Shown: in pieces, positions 6,758-40,145 of the stretch
Layout of the letters: each line of letters starts with the position of its first letter
Position numbering within the stretch: the first letter of the stretch is position 1
Origin: Clostridia bacterium
GTDB lineage: Bacteria > Bacillota > Clostridia > Monoglobales > Firm-18
Reading direction: 5' to 3'
Assembly: GCA_045654805.1 (NCBI GenBank)
Contig: JAZOOD010000063.1
Coordinates: 45,793 to 109,792, forward strand
DNA: 64,000 nt
Notes under the pieces: generated by a model
Told to the model about the DNA's origin: nothing
Databases searched by the model: none
Seen by the model: only the letters and a program-made list of their open reading frames with translations
Position numbers and translations under genes: made by a program

Positions 6758-7720
6758 TTAGTATTTTGTTCTGCCACCATATAAAGCATAATAAATCCAC
6801 CATTGATTATTTCTGTCATAATAATACTTTATTCCTGACCAACGAGCTTTTCTATCCCATTCTTCGTCCAATCTCGGTAATCCATCCATATTTGCTAATG
6901 GAGGAATAAGACTTCCCCCTTGAGCAAGAGCTCCACTTATATATCCAGATACATTTTGTGACTCTAAATAGTAAGCCCAAACATAATTCCCTGCTTCGTT
7001 TCTGTTATATAAAACTCCATTCGCAAGATATAATGTTTCCTTTTCCATTTGTAATTTAAAATCCAAATCACCACCAACAGATTCACTTAAAATGCGTTTA
7101 ATACCTGTGGCCTTCTCATTCGCTTTATCAACTAATGAATCTAGTGTTTCATTTAAGAATTTAGTGTCAAATGAACTCCAATCGTACAACGTTACCGTCT
7201 CTTTACTATTAGCTTGATAGCGACTACCTTCAATTTCAGCATAATAACGATCAGTGTTAAGAAATTCCCAAAATCCCCAATCGTTTTCAACATAATATTC
7301 GGTTTGAGATGTATAGATATAATCTTTTAACCCACTTGGATCGATTCTGTTAATTGGATTATTGGAACAATACACATACCAATTCAATCCATCCCTTGCA
7401 GGGTCTTCTGTTATGAATCGCCCAATACTTGGATCATAGTACCTATTACGCAGGTAAATGAGTCCACTACACAAATCCTGATAATCCCCGCAGTATGCAA
7501 ATGGATTTTCGTCTGTTCCTGTTTGGTTAATCAAATTGCCATAAGCGTCATATTCATAGCTTTGGTTAACTGTGCCTGTGGTTGAAGTAATTGAGCTTAC
7601 ATCTCCGTGCTGATTGGTGCGGAAGTAGTTTGTTACATCATCTGCATCCGTTCGGTAGATTATTCCCGTAAGTCCCCGTACATAATCATTCTGATTACCA
7701 CCTGTAAAGACCCTGTTCAA
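6758..7720 (-). CDS. Orphan 5'-truncated RHS/YD-repeat protein fragment with a C-terminal toxin domain
   Basis: YD repeat YEYDAYGNLI and the RHS core LRNRYYDPSIGRFITEDP...YVYCSNNPINRIDPSGL are followed by about 190 aa of unrecognised C-terminal domain. The only start is a TTG that overlaps the upstream gene. Confidence 0.8.
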   Translation of the reverse strand: MNRVFTGGNQNDYVRGLTGIIYRTDADDVTNYFRTNQHGDVSSITSTTGTVNQSYEYDAYGNLINQTGTDENPFAYCGDYQDLCSGLIYLRNRYYDPSIGRFITEDPARDGLNWYVYCSNNPINRIDPSGLKDYIYTSQTEYYVENDWGFWEFLNTDRYYAEIEGSRYQANSKETVTLYDWSSFDTKFLNETLDSLVDKANEKATGIKRILSESVGGDLDFKLQMEKETLYLANGVLYNRNEAGNYVWAYYLESQNVSGYISGALAQGGSLIPPLANMDGLPRLDEEWDRKARWSGIKYYYDRNNQWWIYYALYGGRTKY

Positions 7721-8537: not shown

Positions 8538-8635
8538 ATATAACATCTCCCATTATTTGTTAATTTTATTATACCTAAATGCACAAGTAAAATCAAGTGT
8601 AATATTACAATTATGTTATATGTAAGATATTTCTA

Positions 8636-8665
8636 TTGTCAAATTATACGATATTTTGTTATAAT
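8636..8665 (+). promoter_or_regulatory. Putative sigma-A promoter of the SLH-GH18 gene
   Basis: TTGTCA, 18-nt spacer, extended -10 TGtTATAAT. Confidence 0.45.
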
Positions 8666-8698
8666 GTATGTATATTTGTAAAAAGGAGGGGTGCGTGG

Positions 8699-10411
8699 TT
8701 GAAAAAAGCAATTCTTAGTTTAGTACTTATTTTAATATTTTTAATACAAATTCCCGCCTTTGGTGTCAGTGCATCGAAAATGGGTGCTGATATGGAGGGC
8801 CATTGGGCAGAAGATTATGGCCGCAGGCTTATGAAACTTGGGATAATGAACGGTTATGAAGACGGAACGTTTAAGTTAACCGGAACTATTACAAGGGCAG
8901 AGTTTACCAAATTACTTGTAACTTTGCGTTACGGTAATTATCAGACATATACGGAAGAAATTTTTGAGGATGTTCCATCATCCGCGTGGTATTACAACTA
9001 TGTTTGTACTGCATATGCGGAAAAAATTCTGGAGGAGCAGGAGGGTGAAAAATTCAGACCATCCGATCTTATTACAAGGGAAGAAATGGTGGTTATGATT
9101 GTCAAATCCCTTGAACTTTCCGGCGGGCGCGCATCATTTGGTGATGTAAACAGCGGAAATGAGCATTATAAGGAAATTTGTGCCGCAGTAAACAGCGGTA
9201 TTATAACGGGTTATGAGGACGGGACTTTCAAGCCCGACAACACGGCAACCCGTGGGGAAACTGCCGCTATGGTGTGCAGGATTTTAAACCATATAACGGA
9301 CAAGGAACTGGTTGGAGAACCAAATCCGGAAGTGGAGCTTGAGGAAGATGAATATCCTGAAGATGAACCTGTGGAAATACCGGATATAGAATATGTTCCC
9401 GGTGATGTTGATGACGAAATATCAGGCAAAATTAACCTTACCTGGCACCAGATATATAATACTGGGGTAACAAAGACAGGGAACCATATGGATGGGGTAA
9501 ATGTAATTTCTCCAACGTGGTTTACACTTGTTGACAACACAGGGTTAACACCTTATTCATATGAATATGAATTTTACAGCGACCTTAACCTTTATATTGC
9601 AGACCTTGGCAACAAGGAATACATAAAGGATTGCAAAGAGGAAGGTTATAAGGTATGGGCGATGTTTAACACAGAGGGCAGCCCCGCTAAGGCAAGCAAG
9701 TTTTTAAACAGCGCACCTGCAAGAGCAGCCTGTGTTAAAATGATGAAAGAGTTTATTTTGAAATATGACCTTGACGGCATAAATCTGGACTTTGAAAATA
9801 TGTATCAGTCCGACCGTGACCTATATACAAAATTTGTGAAGGAAATGGCGGATATGTGCCACAGCGTAGGAGCAATATTAAGCGTTGACGTTACAAAGTA
9901 CGAGCCTACAAGCTCTACATACTCTATGTGCTACGACCGTACAGCTATTGCCAAGTATGCGGATTATGTAGCATTAATGGCTTATGACCAGAATGGAACC
10001 TGGAGCAAAGAGGCAGGTTCTGTGGCGGACCTCGAATGGACAGAAAAAGCAGTTATAAAAACACTTGAGGAAGTTCCTAATGAAAAATTGCTTTTAGGCA
10101 TACCTTTTTATGCAAGAATATGGGAAACTGTTAACGGCAAGGTTGTAAAGACCTCCGCCGTGGGTATGACTACTGTTGCAAATAAGATTGCGGAAAATAA
10201 CGCTACTGTTTATTATGATGAAAAAACGGGGCAAAATTATGCAGAATGGACCTCGGGCAACAGCGTTTTCAAGGTATGGATAGAGGATAAGACATCAATC
10301 AAGGCAAGACTTGATTTAGTTGAGCAATATGACCTTGCGGGAGTTGCCTCCTGGAGTAAAACCTTTGAAACTCCGGATATATGGGAATTTATTGAGGAGA
10401 ATTTGAGATGA
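8699..10411 (+). CDS. SLH-anchored glycoside hydrolase family 18 (YaaH/YdhD-like)
   Basis: A signal peptide is followed by three SLH-like repeats (GYEDGTFK.. twice). The GH18 catalytic motif LDGINLDFE is present. A TTG start after RBS AGGAGGGG is preferred over the track start at 8636. Confidence 0.8.
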   Translation: MKKAILSLVLILIFLIQIPAFGVSASKMGADMEGHWAEDYGRRLMKLGIMNGYEDGTFKLTGTITRAEFTKLLVTLRYGNYQTYTEEIFEDVPSSAWYYNYVCTAYAEKILEEQEGEKFRPSDLITREEMVVMIVKSLELSGGRASFGDVNSGNEHYKEICAAVNSGIITGYEDGTFKPDNTATRGETAAMVCRILNHITDKELVGEPNPEVELEEDEYPEDEPVEIPDIEYVPGDVDDEISGKINLTWHQIYNTGVTKTGNHMDGVNVISPTWFTLVDNTGLTPYSYEYEFYSDLNLYIADLGNKEYIKDCKEEGYKVWAMFNTEGSPAKASKFLNSAPARAACVKMMKEFILKYDLDGINLDFENMYQSDRDLYTKFVKEMADMCHSVGAILSVDVTKYEPTSSTYSMCYDRTAIAKYADYVALMAYDQNGTWSKEAGSVADLEWTEKAVIKTLEEVPNEKLLLGIPFYARIWETVNGKVVKTSAVGMTTVANKIAENNATVYYDEKTGQNYAEWTSGNSVFKVWIEDKTSIKARLDLVEQYDLAGVASWSKTFETPDIWEFIEENLR

Positions 10412-29447: not shown

Positions 29448-30317
29448 TTATAGTGAATTCAATGTTTCTGATAAAGCAAGGTATACTTTAACCAAATCAT
29501 TTACATCTAAATTGTCTAATGTATCCTCAGTAGTATGCAAATTTTCACCCTCCTGCCCAATAGATAAAGAGGGTATTCCGACCCTGTTAAACGGAATTTC
29601 ATCACCACTTGAATAAGGAGGATTTAGATTCACCGAAAAATATTTTTCAAAGGTTTTTTCAAACAAAAAATATGCCGGTGTATAATCTTGCTCTGCAAAA
29701 GATATTTCAGGGGTGGAATTTCCACTCAAGGTATCCAGGTTTATAACAGCTGCAATATTGTTTTTTTCTGTTTCGGATAATTTATTTACAAAATGTTCTG
29801 ATCCTAACAAAAAGTTTTCTTCCCCCGAAAACAGAACATATATTAAATTAAATTTATCTGTTTTTTCAAAGTTTTTTGCTAATTCAATCAAAACTGCAAC
29901 ACCGGAAGCATTATCATTTACACCGGGAAATGAAGTTGTATCATAATGAGCCACTATTAGAATATCTTTTTTTGAAGAGTCATTTTTTTGTCTGGCAATT
30001 ATATTGTGTGTCTCTCCATCTTTAATTTTTTTCAAATTTATTGGAAACGGCTTGCCTGACTCTACAGCAATGCCATTTTCAGAAAGAGAGTATTTTATTT
30101 TTTGTAGTTTAACATTATAACCAAATTTCTCCAATTCATTTCGTAAAAATAAAGCTGTTTCCTTTTCTTCTTCAGTCCCCAAGTTTCTTGTTTCAGGCAA
30201 TAATTTTATGGTTGATAATAAAGTTTCTGAAACAGATACATCTTCAGAATTATTGCTACATCCTGCTACAAGTAATATTAAGGCAAATATCACAAATATA
30301 TATTTAATTCTATACAT
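29448..30317 (-). CDS. M28-family metallo-aminopeptidase lipoprotein
   Basis: It has lipobox LLVAGC and M28 motifs HYDT, NDNASGVAVLIELA and SGEENFLLGSEHF. RBS GGGAGAA favours the ATG at 30317. Confidence 0.8.
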   Translation of the reverse strand: MYRIKYIFVIFALILLVAGCSNNSEDVSVSETLLSTIKLLPETRNLGTEEEKETALFLRNELEKFGYNVKLQKIKYSLSENGIAVESGKPFPINLKKIKDGETHNIIARQKNDSSKKDILIVAHYDTTSFPGVNDNASGVAVLIELAKNFEKTDKFNLIYVLFSGEENFLLGSEHFVNKLSETEKNNIAAVINLDTLSGNSTPEISFAEQDYTPAYFLFEKTFEKYFSVNLNPPYSSGDEIPFNRVGIPSLSIGQEGENLHTTEDTLDNLDVNDLVKVYLALSETLNSL

Positions 30318-30352
30318 AGCAATTCTCCCATACATATCCGATAATCATAATA

Positions 30353-30730
30353 TCATTTAAGTTTAAATTGAATGTTTCTTAACTCAACCCACTTAGATTC
30401 CTTGCCTGCAGGAAATCCACATAGTGCAAATCCGTATTTCCTCTCAAGAATTTCAACAACTTCGCTAAATTCCTGAACAGAATGCTTGCTATTTGACGAT
30501 GCTGAGTTGTACAGATAAGAACCACTTGCTACTTTCCCGTAATTAGCAGCTGAAAAAAGTTTTTCATCAAACGACACACTGTCTAATTTTATATATCCCT
30601 CTGTGGGCGGAATACTCATAACCGGCAACTGAACATAATAACTACCTTTCGATTCATAGAAAATATAAACCAAATCATTTCTTTTAACATTGATAATTTT
30701 TTCTTTATAATCTGCATCACCGTAAAGCAC
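30353..30730 (-). CDS. Tandem SH3b-like domain ORF with no signal peptide and no convincing start
   Basis: It lies in the same frame as the upstream ORF, separated by one TAA. The only start is a GTG without an SD. The domain-like sequence (GILTKDAVLYG..) begins before that GTG. Confidence 0.4.
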   Translation of the reverse strand: MLYGDADYKEKIINVKRNDLVYIFYESKGSYYVQLPVMSIPPTEGYIKLDSVSFDEKLFSAANYGKVASGSYLYNSASSNSKHSVQEFSEVVEILERKYGFALCGFPAGKESKWVELRNIQFKLK

Positions 30731-30766
30731 CGCATCTTTGGTAAGAATTCCTGTTTGACCATTATA

Positions 30767-32398
30767 TTATACTTGTTTATCCACAAGTATATTATAATAC
30801 TCAGAAGTTTCACTTGTTCCGTCCTTATAGTTAAATATAAACTGCAAATGTCCCGTTGTTGCATCATCCGGAAATTGAATCCTCATTCCTAAAACCTGTG
30901 CCATAGTACGATATGAAAAAGGTGCTTTGATTTTTCCTATTTCTTTTTTGTGCTCATCCATTCCTGTGCCTGTAGGAGTAAAATATGCTGTCACAGCAGT
31001 TGGATAAGGCTCTTTACCAGCCTCAAACCATGAAAAACTTGCGGTTATTACTTGTGGAACCCTATACCAGTTACCTAATCTTTCAATTATCTTCTCATAA
31101 GGTGTACAGTCATAAAAGAATATTTCCTTTAAAATGTCATTGCTAACTTCCTTAACGGAACGCACAATCCAAATCCCATGCTCACTTTTATCTACAGGTT
31201 TAAAAAGTTCTAAAGTATATCGCTTATCGCCTATCGTGTATGTTCCTGTACATTTTTCCCCATCACCCGCAAAATAAGTCAATTTTCCGTTCTCAACAGA
31301 TTCTCCCAAACCGGAAAGGTACATCTGTATAACTTGCTCATAATCTATTCTCCATGGAAAATGTCCATTATCTGCCTGTCTTTGCAAGTCTCTCATTTGA
31401 ACATAGGATAAATTTTCAGCATTGGTTATAACAGGAATATCAACATCATTTATCAGCGAAAATGTAGTTTCAATATGAGTTATACCTTTTGCCATTCTTT
31501 CATATTCTGCAGCAAGGTCAATATCTTCTTTATCTCTATCAGCCCAAATTGGATACTGAACATCTGTCGGTCTGCCTACAATATAAGCATAATCATGATT
31601 TTGCCATACAATCGTCTGATTTTCTACTGTATTTATAAAAGAATTAATTTCTTTGTCCGCTTTTTTTCTAAGCGAAAACAGCATACCTTCGCCATCGTAT
31701 TTATCAGCAATTGCCTTATGCTTGAATATAATATAACCTTTATCAACCTCTGTCTCGTCAGCAATGTATTTTCCAAGCCAATACATAGGTAGTTCAAACT
31801 GTACATTCATCTTTTTATTTTTATATAATGTACTTCCGAAAATATCATAATTATTTGCATCTATGAAAATGTATTCTATAAACTCATATGGAATATAGAG
31901 TGTGCTGTTTTTAGCTTCAGGTGCAAACTTTGTTTTTCTTGATGCACTTGCACCAATCAACGATTCATAATAAACTTCATTTTTTCCAAGAGTAATTCTA
32001 TAGTTATCACCAGCACCAGGAATTTTAATAATTGCTTCATTTAAGTTTATTTCACATTCTGCCCCAAGTTTCTTGCATAGTTCGTCTAACGGGAAGAATG
32101 CCATTTCATAACTTGTATATCCCGTTGATCTTGATTCAGATAAAACATAAGGGTCATTGTTGAATTCGAGATATTCTCCATTTAACGTAAGCTTTATGTC
32201 ACTATTAACTGATGTGTCATCTCCTCTGTTAACTGCAACCCAAATAGATACGCAGATTATCGACACTATTATAACAGCAAAAACAGCCATTGAGATAAAA
32301 CTTGAGGTTTTGCCGGTTTCAGAGCGAATCTTTGAAAATCTGGTTTGCAATTTCTTTTTATCTGCACTCATTTTGGTTGTATACATCTTTCCCAACAT
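30767..32398 (-). CDS. Membrane-anchored ectodomain protein, paralog A (Cu-amine-oxidase-N-like stalk plus shared unknown C-terminal module)
   Basis: RBS AAGGAGG. It begins MLGKMYTTKMSADKKKLQTRFSKIRS, then a TM. A stalk-like segment IKLTLNGEYLEFNNDPYV...LYIPYEF follows. The C-terminal module is shared with paralog B. Confidence 0.5.
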   Translation of the reverse strand: MLGKMYTTKMSADKKKLQTRFSKIRSETGKTSSFISMAVFAVIIVSIICVSIWVAVNRGDDTSVNSDIKLTLNGEYLEFNNDPYVLSESRSTGYTSYEMAFFPLDELCKKLGAECEINLNEAIIKIPGAGDNYRITLGKNEVYYESLIGASASRKTKFAPEAKNSTLYIPYEFIEYIFIDANNYDIFGSTLYKNKKMNVQFELPMYWLGKYIADETEVDKGYIIFKHKAIADKYDGEGMLFSLRKKADKEINSFINTVENQTIVWQNHDYAYIVGRPTDVQYPIWADRDKEDIDLAAEYERMAKGITHIETTFSLINDVDIPVITNAENLSYVQMRDLQRQADNGHFPWRIDYEQVIQMYLSGLGESVENGKLTYFAGDGEKCTGTYTIGDKRYTLELFKPVDKSEHGIWIVRSVKEVSNDILKEIFFYDCTPYEKIIERLGNWYRVPQVITASFSWFEAGKEPYPTAVTAYFTPTGTGMDEHKKEIGKIKAPFSYRTMAQVLGMRIQFPDDATTGHLQFIFNYKDGTSETSEYYNILVDKQV

Positions 32399-33619: not shown

Positions 33620-33642
33620 AATATCCCTCCAACAATTACATC

Positions 33643-33690
33643 TACACTTGTAGCTATATTTAGTATATCAAGTATATCTACATTTGTCAA
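33643..33690 (-). promoter_or_regulatory. blaI promoter with two TACAnnTGTA-type operator boxes
   Basis: On the minus strand: TTGACA (33690-33685), 17 nt, TATACT (33667-33662). Box TACATTTGTC (33679-33688) overlaps the -35. Box TACACTTGTA (33643-33652) lies just downstream of the -10. Confidence 0.6.
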
Positions 33691-33716
33691 TATAAATTTT
33701 GGGTTGTTAAATATAA

Positions 33717-33976
33717 TTTAATTATGCAATAAAAAAACTCCCTGAGGGAGCATTTTTATTGGTGCGCTTGACAGGAGAGCATATTGCAAGCAATCTGCCT
33801 TGCTTGCCGACCCAAGCCTGTGGCTTCGGTACCCGTCTGCGCAACACTCGGCTACGAAACAATTCACAGAATTGTTTTGTTAAACGCCTCGTGCCTTCTC
33901 AAGGTTCGACTCCTTTTTAATAATGCAATAAAAAAACTCCCTGAGGGAGCATTTTTATTGGTGCGCTTGACAGGAG
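33717..33976. repeat. 61-bp direct repeat (60/61 identical, period 199 bp) duplicating the tRNA-Arg(CCG) 3' end plus its terminator
   Basis: Copy L is 33717-33777 and copy R is 33916-33976. Both end in TGGTGCGCTTGACAGGAG, the reverse complement of the last 18 nt of the tRNA. Only copy R continues into the tRNA body. Confidence 0.85.
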
Positions 33977-34035
33977 TCGAACCTGCGACAACCCGGCGTC
34001 GGAGGCCGGTGCTCTATCCACTGAGCTACAAACGC
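33959..34035 (-). tRNA. tRNA-Arg (anticodon CCG), CCA encoded
   Basis: It folds as a 77-nt cloverleaf: acceptor GCGTTTG/CAAGCGC, anticodon loop CTCCGAC, T-loop TTCGACT. Confidence 0.9.
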
Positions 34036-34071
34036 TTATAATAATAAGGCGGGTTAAACCGCCTTACTAGT

Positions 34072-39942: not shown

Positions 39943-40139
39943 AAAAAAATACCCCGATATTTTAAAATCGGGGTATATGTATACAAAAATAACATAAAAT
40001 TGCAAAAAAGCAAATATGCAGTTATCTTCTCTCATCCAGACTGTACTGTCGGTTTTGGAATTTCACCAAATCAGCCGTTTTGTATAAAACGGGTCGCGGA
40101 CTATACCGCCGGTAAGGAATTTCACCTTGCCCCGAAGAT
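39943..40139 (-). promoter_or_regulatory. FMN riboswitch (RFN element) with terminator expression platform
   Basis: The minus strand reads ..CTTCGGGGCAAGGTGAAATTCCTTACCGGCGGTATAGTCCGCGA..GATTTGGTGAAATTCCAAAACCGACAGT.CAGTCTGGATGAGAGAAG, matching RFN conserved cores. Terminator ATACCCCGAT..ATCGGGGTAT followed by T7 lies at 39943-39978. Confidence 0.9.
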
Positions 40140-40145
40140 ATTTAT

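Follow-up and report, generated by a model that had tools for sequence, protein, structure and literature searches.

Repeat units lying directly 3' of a tRNA gene are known from the tyrT and tyrV genes of Escherichia coli (RtT RNA, RF00391; rttR/tpr), where one tyrT repeat unit encodes rttR (PMC3318445). Repeats of tRNA or transfer-messenger RNA (tmRNA) sequence are also found as the attL and attR sites of integrated elements; serine recombinases insert at the T-loop of ssrA (PMC3146451), and decayed cis-mobilizable elements (CIMEs) as well as tandem accretion have been defined (PMC5704250). Tandem tRNA duplication with decay to a pseudogene offers a third comparison. Here we describe a locus that resembles each of these in part, found in a stretch of 64,000 nt from an uncultured Clostridia lineage (assembly GCA_045654805.1, contig JAZOOD010000063.1, positions 45,793 to 109,792), which as a whole is called the window. 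Directly 3' of its tRNA-Arg(CCG) gene lies a direct-repeat array with a single unit of about 199 bp, composed of an insert, B (138 nt), and a repeat, A (61 nt).

We consider the chances to be even that recombination at a hot spot in the tRNA T-loop produced this pseudo-tRNA repeat unit, that unequal crossing-over resizes the array and that lineages have shared it recently; beyond an extra terminator it has no demonstrated function. Recombination at the T-loop, the site used by tRNA-targeting recombinases, would have duplicated and rearranged the 3' region of the gene. Unequal homologous recombination between the 61-bp repeats would now gain or lose units, and the block of tRNA, A and B may have been exchanged between lineages after the flanking genes had diverged. 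At most, the extra terminator would further insulate the blaI promoter from tRNA read-through, and most likely the unit has no autonomous function. The observations behind this reading are the anatomy of the unit, its polymorphism, its tRNA-derived composition and an unusual similarity between lineages; from them we infer the recombination mechanism and the lack of function.

The closest analogue is E. coli tyrT/tyrV. In both systems the tRNA is followed directly, on its 3' side, by tandem units of about 180-200 bp, and each unit carries the last 18-19 nt or so of that tRNA. In E. coli K-12 we found a period of 178 bp, with three tandem copies after tyrV and a fourth copy that separates tyrT from tyrV; the 3' end of tyrV is overlapped by the copy adjoining it, and the RtT model matched all four units with 133-138 bits. 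The Clostridia units likewise stand in tandem 3' of the tRNA, each with its 3'-terminal ~19 nt (A-B-A in the window, A-B-A-B-A' in the related contig L101). However, there is no homology of sequence or structure, as the RtT model gave no match in the window region at E<=10 and none in L101 at E<=1. The Clostridia units also differ in that each has its own intrinsic terminator and an inverted T-arm box, and RttR is an experimentally observed RNA (PMC3318445), whereas an RNA from the Clostridia unit is putative. The locus is a second, phylogenetically remote case of the E. coli architecture, in which units contain the tRNA 3' end, and this suggests that such an arrangement arises recurrently.

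With attL/attR repeats at tRNA and tmRNA genes the locus shares the start in the T-loop, the intact tRNA, the orphaned distal copy, variation between strains, tandem arrays and the hot spot. In contrast to them, the 'element' is only 138 bp long, encodes nothing and appears to be derived from the tRNA locus, the repeat runs 43 nt past the tRNA and through the terminator, and no integrase or full-length relative was found. With a tandem tRNA duplication or pseudogene it shares collinear remains of the upstream hairpin, of tRNA positions 3-50 and of the exact 3' end; in the sister lineage L088, tRNA-Arg(CCG) is likewise present a second time, intact and together with its leader. Unlike in a simple pseudogene, a perfect hairpin stands in place of the T-arm, the direct copy comes after an inverted piece of the tRNA, and B is much more alike in different lineages than would be expected of a neutral pseudogene.

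If our preferred reading is true, the locus is a clean, dated case of a tRNA-linked hot spot making and resizing small repeats. Metagenome assemblies break at such repeats, which can also be taken wrongly for att scars that lost islands have left.

Anatomy of the repeat unit and composition of the insert

Features of the repeat unit. Positions are those of the window; the tRNA strand is the minus strand.
33959 to 34035, minus strand: tRNA-Arg(CCG), functional gene, 36 nt 3' of tyrS (ARAGORN; Rfam tRNA, 62.8 bits).
33916 to 33976, minus strand: proximal copy of A, the last 18 nt of the tRNA (33959-33976) with a 43-nt trailer containing an intrinsic terminator.
33778 to 33915, minus strand: insert B, 138 nt, 51% G+C, with four hairpins and rearranged tRNA-locus sequence.
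33717 to 33777, minus strand: distal copy of A, an orphan 18-nt tRNA 3' fragment (33760-33777) with a second copy of the terminator (33751-33737).

The tRNA gene follows tyrS, the gene of a tyrosyl-tRNA synthetase of 412 aa (35310-34072), and was found 3' of tyrS in every relative examined. In a repeat search the two copies of A were 60/61 identical (98%) with a spacing of 199. The initial annotation, made from the sequence, had described the same 61-nt duplication of a tRNA 3' end and terminator, with a right copy that alone runs into a tRNA body and a hairpin-rich insert of about 138 bp; our analysis recovered the same coordinates and identity, with the left copy as the orphan fragment and the insert as B. 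Both ARAGORN and Rfam placed the gene at 33959-34035, so that the right copy holds the last 18 nt of the tRNA. Identity between the copies begins at CT|CCTG, and the tRNA part of A extends from the last two bases of the T-loop to CCA. At up to 3 mismatches the 18-mer of the tRNA 3' end had two sites only in the 64 kb, where about 0.02 chance matches are expected. Both copies also contain a terminator-like hairpin with a U-tract on the tRNA strand (33950-33936 and 33751-33737). As in an att duplication, direct repeats of a tRNA 3' end flank the insert, the tRNA gene itself is intact, and the boundary of the repeat is at the T-loop.

Features of insert B.
33899 to 33923, minus strand: conserved 25-nt box TTATTAAAAAGGAGTCGAACCTTGA, also written TTATTMAAAAGGAGTCGAACCTTGA, at the tRNA-proximal edge of B; it includes the inverted T-arm copy.
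33883 to 33914, plus strand: inverted, diverged copy of tRNA positions ~37-64 (3' side of the anticodon stem, variable loop and T-arm), from local alignment.
33854 to 33880, minus strand: hairpin AAACAATTC-TGT-GAATTGTTT.
33808 to 33889, minus strand (B27-108): diverged direct copy, collinear, of the leader-hairpin motif AGGCG(G)TTTAAC and tRNA positions 3-50.
33810 to 33830, minus strand: hairpin ACCGAAGCC-ACA-GGCTTGGGT, 8 pairs and one G.G mismatch, where the anticodon-arm region aligns.
33786 to 33807, minus strand: perfect 8-bp hairpin GCAAGCAA-GGCAGA-TTGCTTGC, the same in all five B copies.

Three hairpins had been named in the initial annotation; all are present, with one mismatch in ACCCAAGCC/GGCTTCGGT. 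The predicted fold of B was more stable than 200 of 200 shuffles on each strand (z -3.05 and -3.30).

The first ~32 nt of B match, inverted, the variable and T-arm region of the tRNA. Reverse-complemented B aligned to tRNA positions 37-64 with a score of 27, a value reached by 6 of 500 shuffles (mean 17.3), and the four other tRNAs of the window scored 17-22. Within this stretch the inverted T-arm copy, already seen by the initial annotation at the end of B, is exact over 13 nt (33902-33914 against 33972-33984). In tRNA orientation B56-108 aligned to tRNA positions 3-50 with a score of 26 (p=0.006, dinucleotide shuffles), and only 12-16.5 was reached by the other four tRNAs. When the alignment was extended upstream over AGGCG(G)TTTAAC, which belongs to the tyrS-terminator hairpin before the real tRNA, the score rose to 34 (p=0.004). 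Thereafter A, with tRNA positions 60-77 and the trailer, comes in register. The similarity to the parent tRNA-Arg(CCG) is thus collinear, as in a tRNA pseudogene, and the 5' half of the T-stem and the T-loop are replaced by the hairpin GCAAGCAA-GGCAGA-TTGCTTGC plus AATATGCT.

We concluded that B appears to be a scrambled derivative of the tRNA locus, an inverted fragment of the 3' half followed by a diverged direct copy of leader and tRNA. Since the direct copy and A stand in register, B and A together would be a pseudo-tRNA-Arg gene with its own terminator. The tRNA-locus origin would also be the reason for the high G+C content of B (51% against 36.6% for the window). The suggestion in the initial annotation that the insert is cargo left behind by a collapsed element did not hold, as the 138 bp are built largely from rearranged tRNA-locus copies and are not foreign.

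No cloverleaf was detected by ARAGORN or Rfam in B and A, and a cryptic tRNA or tmRNA in B was rejected because ARAGORN at default settings returned the real tRNA only. At 70% thresholds ARAGORN proposed a plus-strand 'tRNA-Thr(TGT) with 84-nt intron' at 33756-33924. The proposal relies on the inverted T-arm, pairs the two A copies into an AT-rich acceptor and lacks CCA; in the related contig L124 the same 7-bp acceptor can still form if G-U pairs are counted. This tRNA-Thr(TGT) is probably spurious. An origin of the anti-T-arm by palindrome extension was considered too, from an exact mirror spacing round the terminator in the window (31/47 complementary), and was discarded as a conserved feature, the spacing being shifted by 2 and 5 nt in L124 and L125.

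Copy number and similarity between lineages

Relatives were ENA metagenome contigs found through TyrS homologues, comprising about 70 TyrS variants of 88-96% identity; full B sequences come from two lineages only. The closest TyrS match among GTDB species representatives was 69% identical and came from Clostridia and Oscillospiraceae metagenome-assembled genomes, and none of 80 loci of GTDB species representatives reached via TyrS had the tRNA or B 3' of tyrS. In a search of 140 loci with nhmmer, B was detected only in L101, L102 and L124. Metagenomes that contain the unit include ERZ27316016 and ERZ28593775. The contigs of the relatives keep the order mutS2-tyrS-tRNA-Arg(CCG), and everything past the tRNA differs completely.

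Content 3' of tRNA-Arg(CCG) in relatives.
L100: a terminator, then DUF1294-CitMHS; no B.
L092/L103 type: PGA_cap.
L082 type: an array of the TGCACCCCA motif, then YpsA, a helix-turn-helix (HTH) protein and a large serine recombinase.
L088 type: AraC-MatE, between the two copies of a 390-nt repeat made up of the leader and whole tRNA.
L107: another terminator and an unknown gene.
L101, L102 and L124 (P0006 TyrS group): the blaI context of the window, with B.

The gene content 3' of the tRNA thus differs lineage by lineage, and the tRNA-Arg(CCG) locus is an island hot spot. Empty sites, in which tyrS and the tRNA stand without B, were present in L100, L092, L082, L088 and L107; most lineages have the tRNA and a terminator and no B, and zero, one or two units occur among the relatives. 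The identical arrangement in all related genomes that the initial annotation had allowed for was therefore not what we saw. L124 has the order tRNA-A-B-A'-blaI with one unit, L101 has tRNA-A-B-A-B-A'-blaI with two, and the window has A-B-A, one unit and an extra A. Of the 412 TyrS residues only 1 is different between L101 and L124, and yet one contig has two units and the other one, from which it follows that the copy number changes on a short time scale.

The copies of A themselves differ. The distal copy, A', has decayed in L101 and L124: its tRNA piece has the sequence CAAGCACACCAAC, and the identity of its trailer to the proximal type is only 71-76%. That trailer opens with 15 bases, A(C/T)AAAAGAGTTCCCG, which agree with the native trailer of L100, where the site is unoccupied. 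In the middle A of L101 stretches of proximal and of distal type are combined, and the distal A of the window is of proximal type up to ...ATTGCAT and then continues into the flank seen beside A' in L124, with the switch at GCAT|AAT. Judged from their sequences, these mosaics would fit unequal homologous crossovers or conversion within A.

Identity between the window and L124.
tyrS: 90.2%; third codon positions of tyrS: 76.5%.
tRNA: 97.4%.
Proximal trailer: 93%.
B: 98.6% (2 differences).
Distal trailer: 71%.
Spacer to blaI: 79%.

Against the window B was identical at 136/138 positions in both L124 and L102 and at 134/138 in each L101 unit. The spacer between tyrS and the tRNA could not be aligned between the window and L124 (36 nt against ~234 nt). 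The proximal trailer was only 77% identical between the window and L100, whose tyrS is as distant as that of L124, and the trailer sequence itself is therefore not strongly constrained. The identity of B (98.6%) exceeded that of the tyrS third positions (76.5%), and the adjacent trailer was also at 93%, a pattern that either recent exchange or selection may have left. The simplest reading would be that the block of tRNA, A and B has a more recent ancestor than its flanks, through recombinational exchange. Four positions of B vary. Three are in or beside the hairpin at 33854-33880 and the fourth is ~6 nt past it; they show no compensatory pattern, and one of the changes breaks a hairpin pair.

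Several observations weigh against a functionless product of recombination. Only 2-4 of the 138 nt of B are changed between lineages whose tyrS genes have diverged by 24% at third codon positions; this could be the work of purifying selection on an RNA or DNA site with a function, and not of recent exchange. In the otherwise different variant of L125 only one base of the 25-nt anti-T-arm box is changed, a hint that the site may be functional. B resembles the tRNA only modestly (~60% identity, p about 0.004-0.01), and three or four near-perfect hairpins with a fold at z of about -3 are not predicted by neutral decay of a tRNA copy.

L125 and L126 have the same TyrS protein (P0003) and different trailers. 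In L125 the box reads TTATTcAAAAGGAGTCGAACCTTGA and is followed by a different sequence up to the end of the contig; L126 ends at the start of the unit. Contigs break in or beside the unit at the ends of L102, L125 and L126 and at the start of L001, which suggests that the repeat unit regularly breaks short-read assemblies.

Two other arrangements at the same tRNA were recorded. In L082 (P0005 lineage) a different terminator follows the tRNA and then at least 9 copies of a TGCACCCCA-type motif (7400-7660). A large serine recombinase (Resolvase, Recombinase and Zn_ribbon domains) lies at 8559-10079, 1.2 kb from the tRNA and cut by the contig end, and YpsA and an HTH_3 protein stand between the motif array and the recombinase; probably L082 has an element integrated at the same tRNA. 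In L088, and also in L089, there are two complete tRNA-Arg(CCG) genes 3.1 kb apart (L088 7219-7606 and 10325-10710). The direct repeat of ~390 nt comprises the whole tyrS-tRNA spacer and the tRNA and brackets AraC and MatE genes. The two tRNA copies are near-identical up to the T-arm, and T-stem and acceptor differ by paired substitutions that preserve pairing, so that the T-arm is again the boundary of identity.

Alternative explanations

It is unlikely, in our judgement, that the unit is a miniature, gene-less integrative element of the CIME kind, an att-bounded relic of A and B that could even now be excised, integrated and accreted in tandem by a tRNA-Arg-specific recombinase encoded elsewhere. 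Such an element would account for the spread of the unit between lineages and for the arrays, CIMEs and tandem accretion being known (PMC5704250; PMC3146451), and A does begin in the T-loop, the classic position of integrase crossover. If the original 3' end had been displaced, one would expect what the distal copy in L101 and L124 shows, a decayed piece of the tRNA 3' end with a diverged trailer, and the first 15 bases of this trailer resemble the trailer of the unoccupied L100. Over its whole length, however, the distal trailer is about as distant from L100 (77%) as it is from the proximal copy of the same array (76%). Also in favour are the tandem units, the block being far more alike between lineages than its flanks, the conserved T-arm-like box of 25 nt at the proximal edge of two different variants, and the recombinase-bearing element at the same tRNA in L082. 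On the other hand, B appears to derive from the tRNA locus and not from an element, a circle of 199 bp is an unlikely substrate for recombination, and unequal crossing-over is enough to explain changes in copy number.

The searches for a mobile source were negative. With blastn against 50,697 phage and 72,556 plasmid records B gave only the generic tRNA T-arm, and pattern scans of IMG/VR and JGI metagenomes gave no match to B. The patterns used were a 22-mer from B, the 18-mer box and the tRNA 3' end with trailer, and they returned nothing or chance matches in unrelated contexts. No full-length element sharing the ends of B and carrying an integrase was found in phage, plasmid, IMG/VR or JGI sequences or in the 140 loci, L125 having only the box in common. 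No integrase was seen near the unit, and no recombinase was present among the 25 of 99 Pfam families listed for the 55 open reading frames (ORFs) of the window, all 25 being housekeeping families. The idea of an att duplication left by an integrative element, as put forward in the initial annotation, therefore stands in part. The T-loop boundary, the polymorphism of 0, 1 and 2 units, the hot spot, the unoccupied sites in L100, L092, L107 and others, and the decayed distal copy of L101/L124 agree with it; the missing full-length element and integrase, the insert built largely from the tRNA locus and the sufficiency of unequal homologous recombination do not.

It is doubtful that the unit encodes a tRNA-derived small RNA (sRNA), a clostridial analogue of E. 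coli RtT. This RNA of ~200 nt would be made by read-through past the short first terminator, end in a tRNA-like acceptor/CCA helix and the second terminator, and be freed by tRNA-processing enzymes; its anti-T-arm box might pair with tRNA T-arms. The predicted fold of B and A is closed by UGCGC/GCGCA and GACGGG/CCUGUC and ends in CCA, and a G-U pair of the closing helix GACGGG/CCUGUC exists on the tRNA strand only. The unit ends in ...GCGCACCA plus the terminator, and in the predicted read-through transcript the 13-nt anti-T-arm box pairs with the tRNA T-arm (a thermodynamic prediction). The high G+C content, the stable fold (z -3.05) and the 98.6% conservation of B speak for an RNA as well, as does the precedent of E. 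coli, where each 178-bp tyrT/tyrV unit overlaps the tRNA 3' end and matches the Rfam RtT model and one unit encodes rttR.

Against the sRNA, B contains no promoter-like site on the tRNA strand and is preceded by an intact terminator, so that a tRNA-strand transcript of B could only come from read-through. The initial annotation had also pointed to Rfam covariance models; with Rfam 15, at gathering and at permissive thresholds, no family, RtT included, matched B in the window or the relatives, only the tRNA itself was matched, and other matches were far below gathering scores. B is absent from most sister lineages and therefore dispensable. The four variable positions described above, without compensatory pattern and with one broken hairpin pair, and the mutated distal acceptor fragment of L124, which weakens the closing helix, also argue against it. 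If it were true, the unit would give a new tRNA-derived small RNA in gut Clostridia.

A bolder form of the integrase idea, which we hold to be quite improbable, makes A and B a non-autonomous integrative element of ~199 bp, a pseudo-tRNA scaffold with T-arm-like recombination sites that a tRNA-Arg-specific recombinase mobilises in trans and that spreads and accretes in tandem within the clade; it would be the integrase-world equivalent of a miniature inverted-repeat transposable element (MITE). In a related view, its read-through transcript would be a regulatory RNA derived from the tRNA. It would then be the smallest integrase-mobilised element described. B does not resemble an actual MITE or a repetitive extragenic palindrome (REP), since there is one B locus in the 64-kb window and B has no terminal inverted repeats.

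Control of read-through into blaI-blaR by a leader peptide or attenuator is very improbable. The doubtful candidate is a mini-ORF of 12 codons.
33864 to 33902, minus strand: candidate mini-ORF with a TTG start, L/M-RRHEAFNKTIL*, 7 nt after an AAAGGAG motif resembling a Shine-Dalgarno (SD) sequence.
The motif, its 7-nt spacing and the TTG start are suitable, the stop codon falls within a hairpin loop, and both substitutions in the frame (2 of 2) are synonymous. However, two substitutions are all there is to judge by, AAAGGAG is merely the complement of the T-loop, and blaI is separated from the ORF by a full terminator and by a promoter of its own. In L125 the same TTG opens a different reading frame, and paralogous blaI modules occur without B. 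A plus-strand ORF through B (53 aa, ...QGSTPF*) was rejected as a gene remnant, as both B substitutions are non-synonymous in it and L125 has the last residues only in common.

An assembly artefact from a collapsed or expanded repeat, an alternative left open by the initial annotation, is almost certainly not the explanation: assemblers do struggle at the locus, as L102, L125 and L126 end within the unit or at its edge, but both junctions were assembled in the window, L124 and L101 from independent samples and assemblers, the architecture recurs in three independent ENA assemblies (L101, L102 and L124), and the A copies of L101 differ among themselves and are therefore not a duplicated read path.

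Neighbouring genes and spacers

The window is core chromosome, and its 55 ORFs include those of acetate kinase, Pta, DnaB, FtsW, RNase Y and PFK. As the initial annotation had it, the unit sits directly upstream of the blaI promoter, a strong promoter-like site followed by a blaI/blaR1-type pair.
33662 to 33690, minus strand: blaI promoter-like site TTGACA-17-TATACT, 11/12 match, context only.
The promoter overlaps TACA/TGTA-type palindromes resembling BlaI operators (predicted). Modules of the blaI-blaR1 type are multi-copy in the clade (L113-L123), and paralogues in other contexts are ~80-85% identical to that of the window; their homology starts exactly at the -35 box (~33694; window 33620-33694). 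Look-ups based on BlaI (P0123 and P0128) led to paralogous blaI-blaR modules elsewhere in the genome, without B.

The content of the island downstream of the repeat varies as well. Between blaR1 and the gene of a 549-aa protein the window has three genes (29448-32398) that are missing from L101, encoding a protein of 543 aa that has a Cu_amine_oxidN1 domain, one of 125 aa and an M28 peptidase.

The stem of the terminator after the tRNA varies by paired changes which keep the stem, e.g. CTCCC/GGGAG against TTCCC/GGGAA (L101, L126, L125, L100 and L092), and the loop of L092 is ~18 nt larger. From these sequences the post-tRNA terminator would fit a functional terminator with a sequence free to drift.

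On the other side of the tRNA, the spacer to tyrS is 36 nt long with one hairpin in the window (34036-34071), L082 and L100. In other lineages its place is taken by two unrelated inserts of ~230-290 nt (L101 4742-4975, L124 7240-7473 and L088/L092 7240-7520), neither of which matched Rfam. An FMN riboswitch (124 bits) was found in the window at 40020-40143 on the minus strand, upstream of the gene of an ECF-type transporter, and is kept in L082, L088 and L124.

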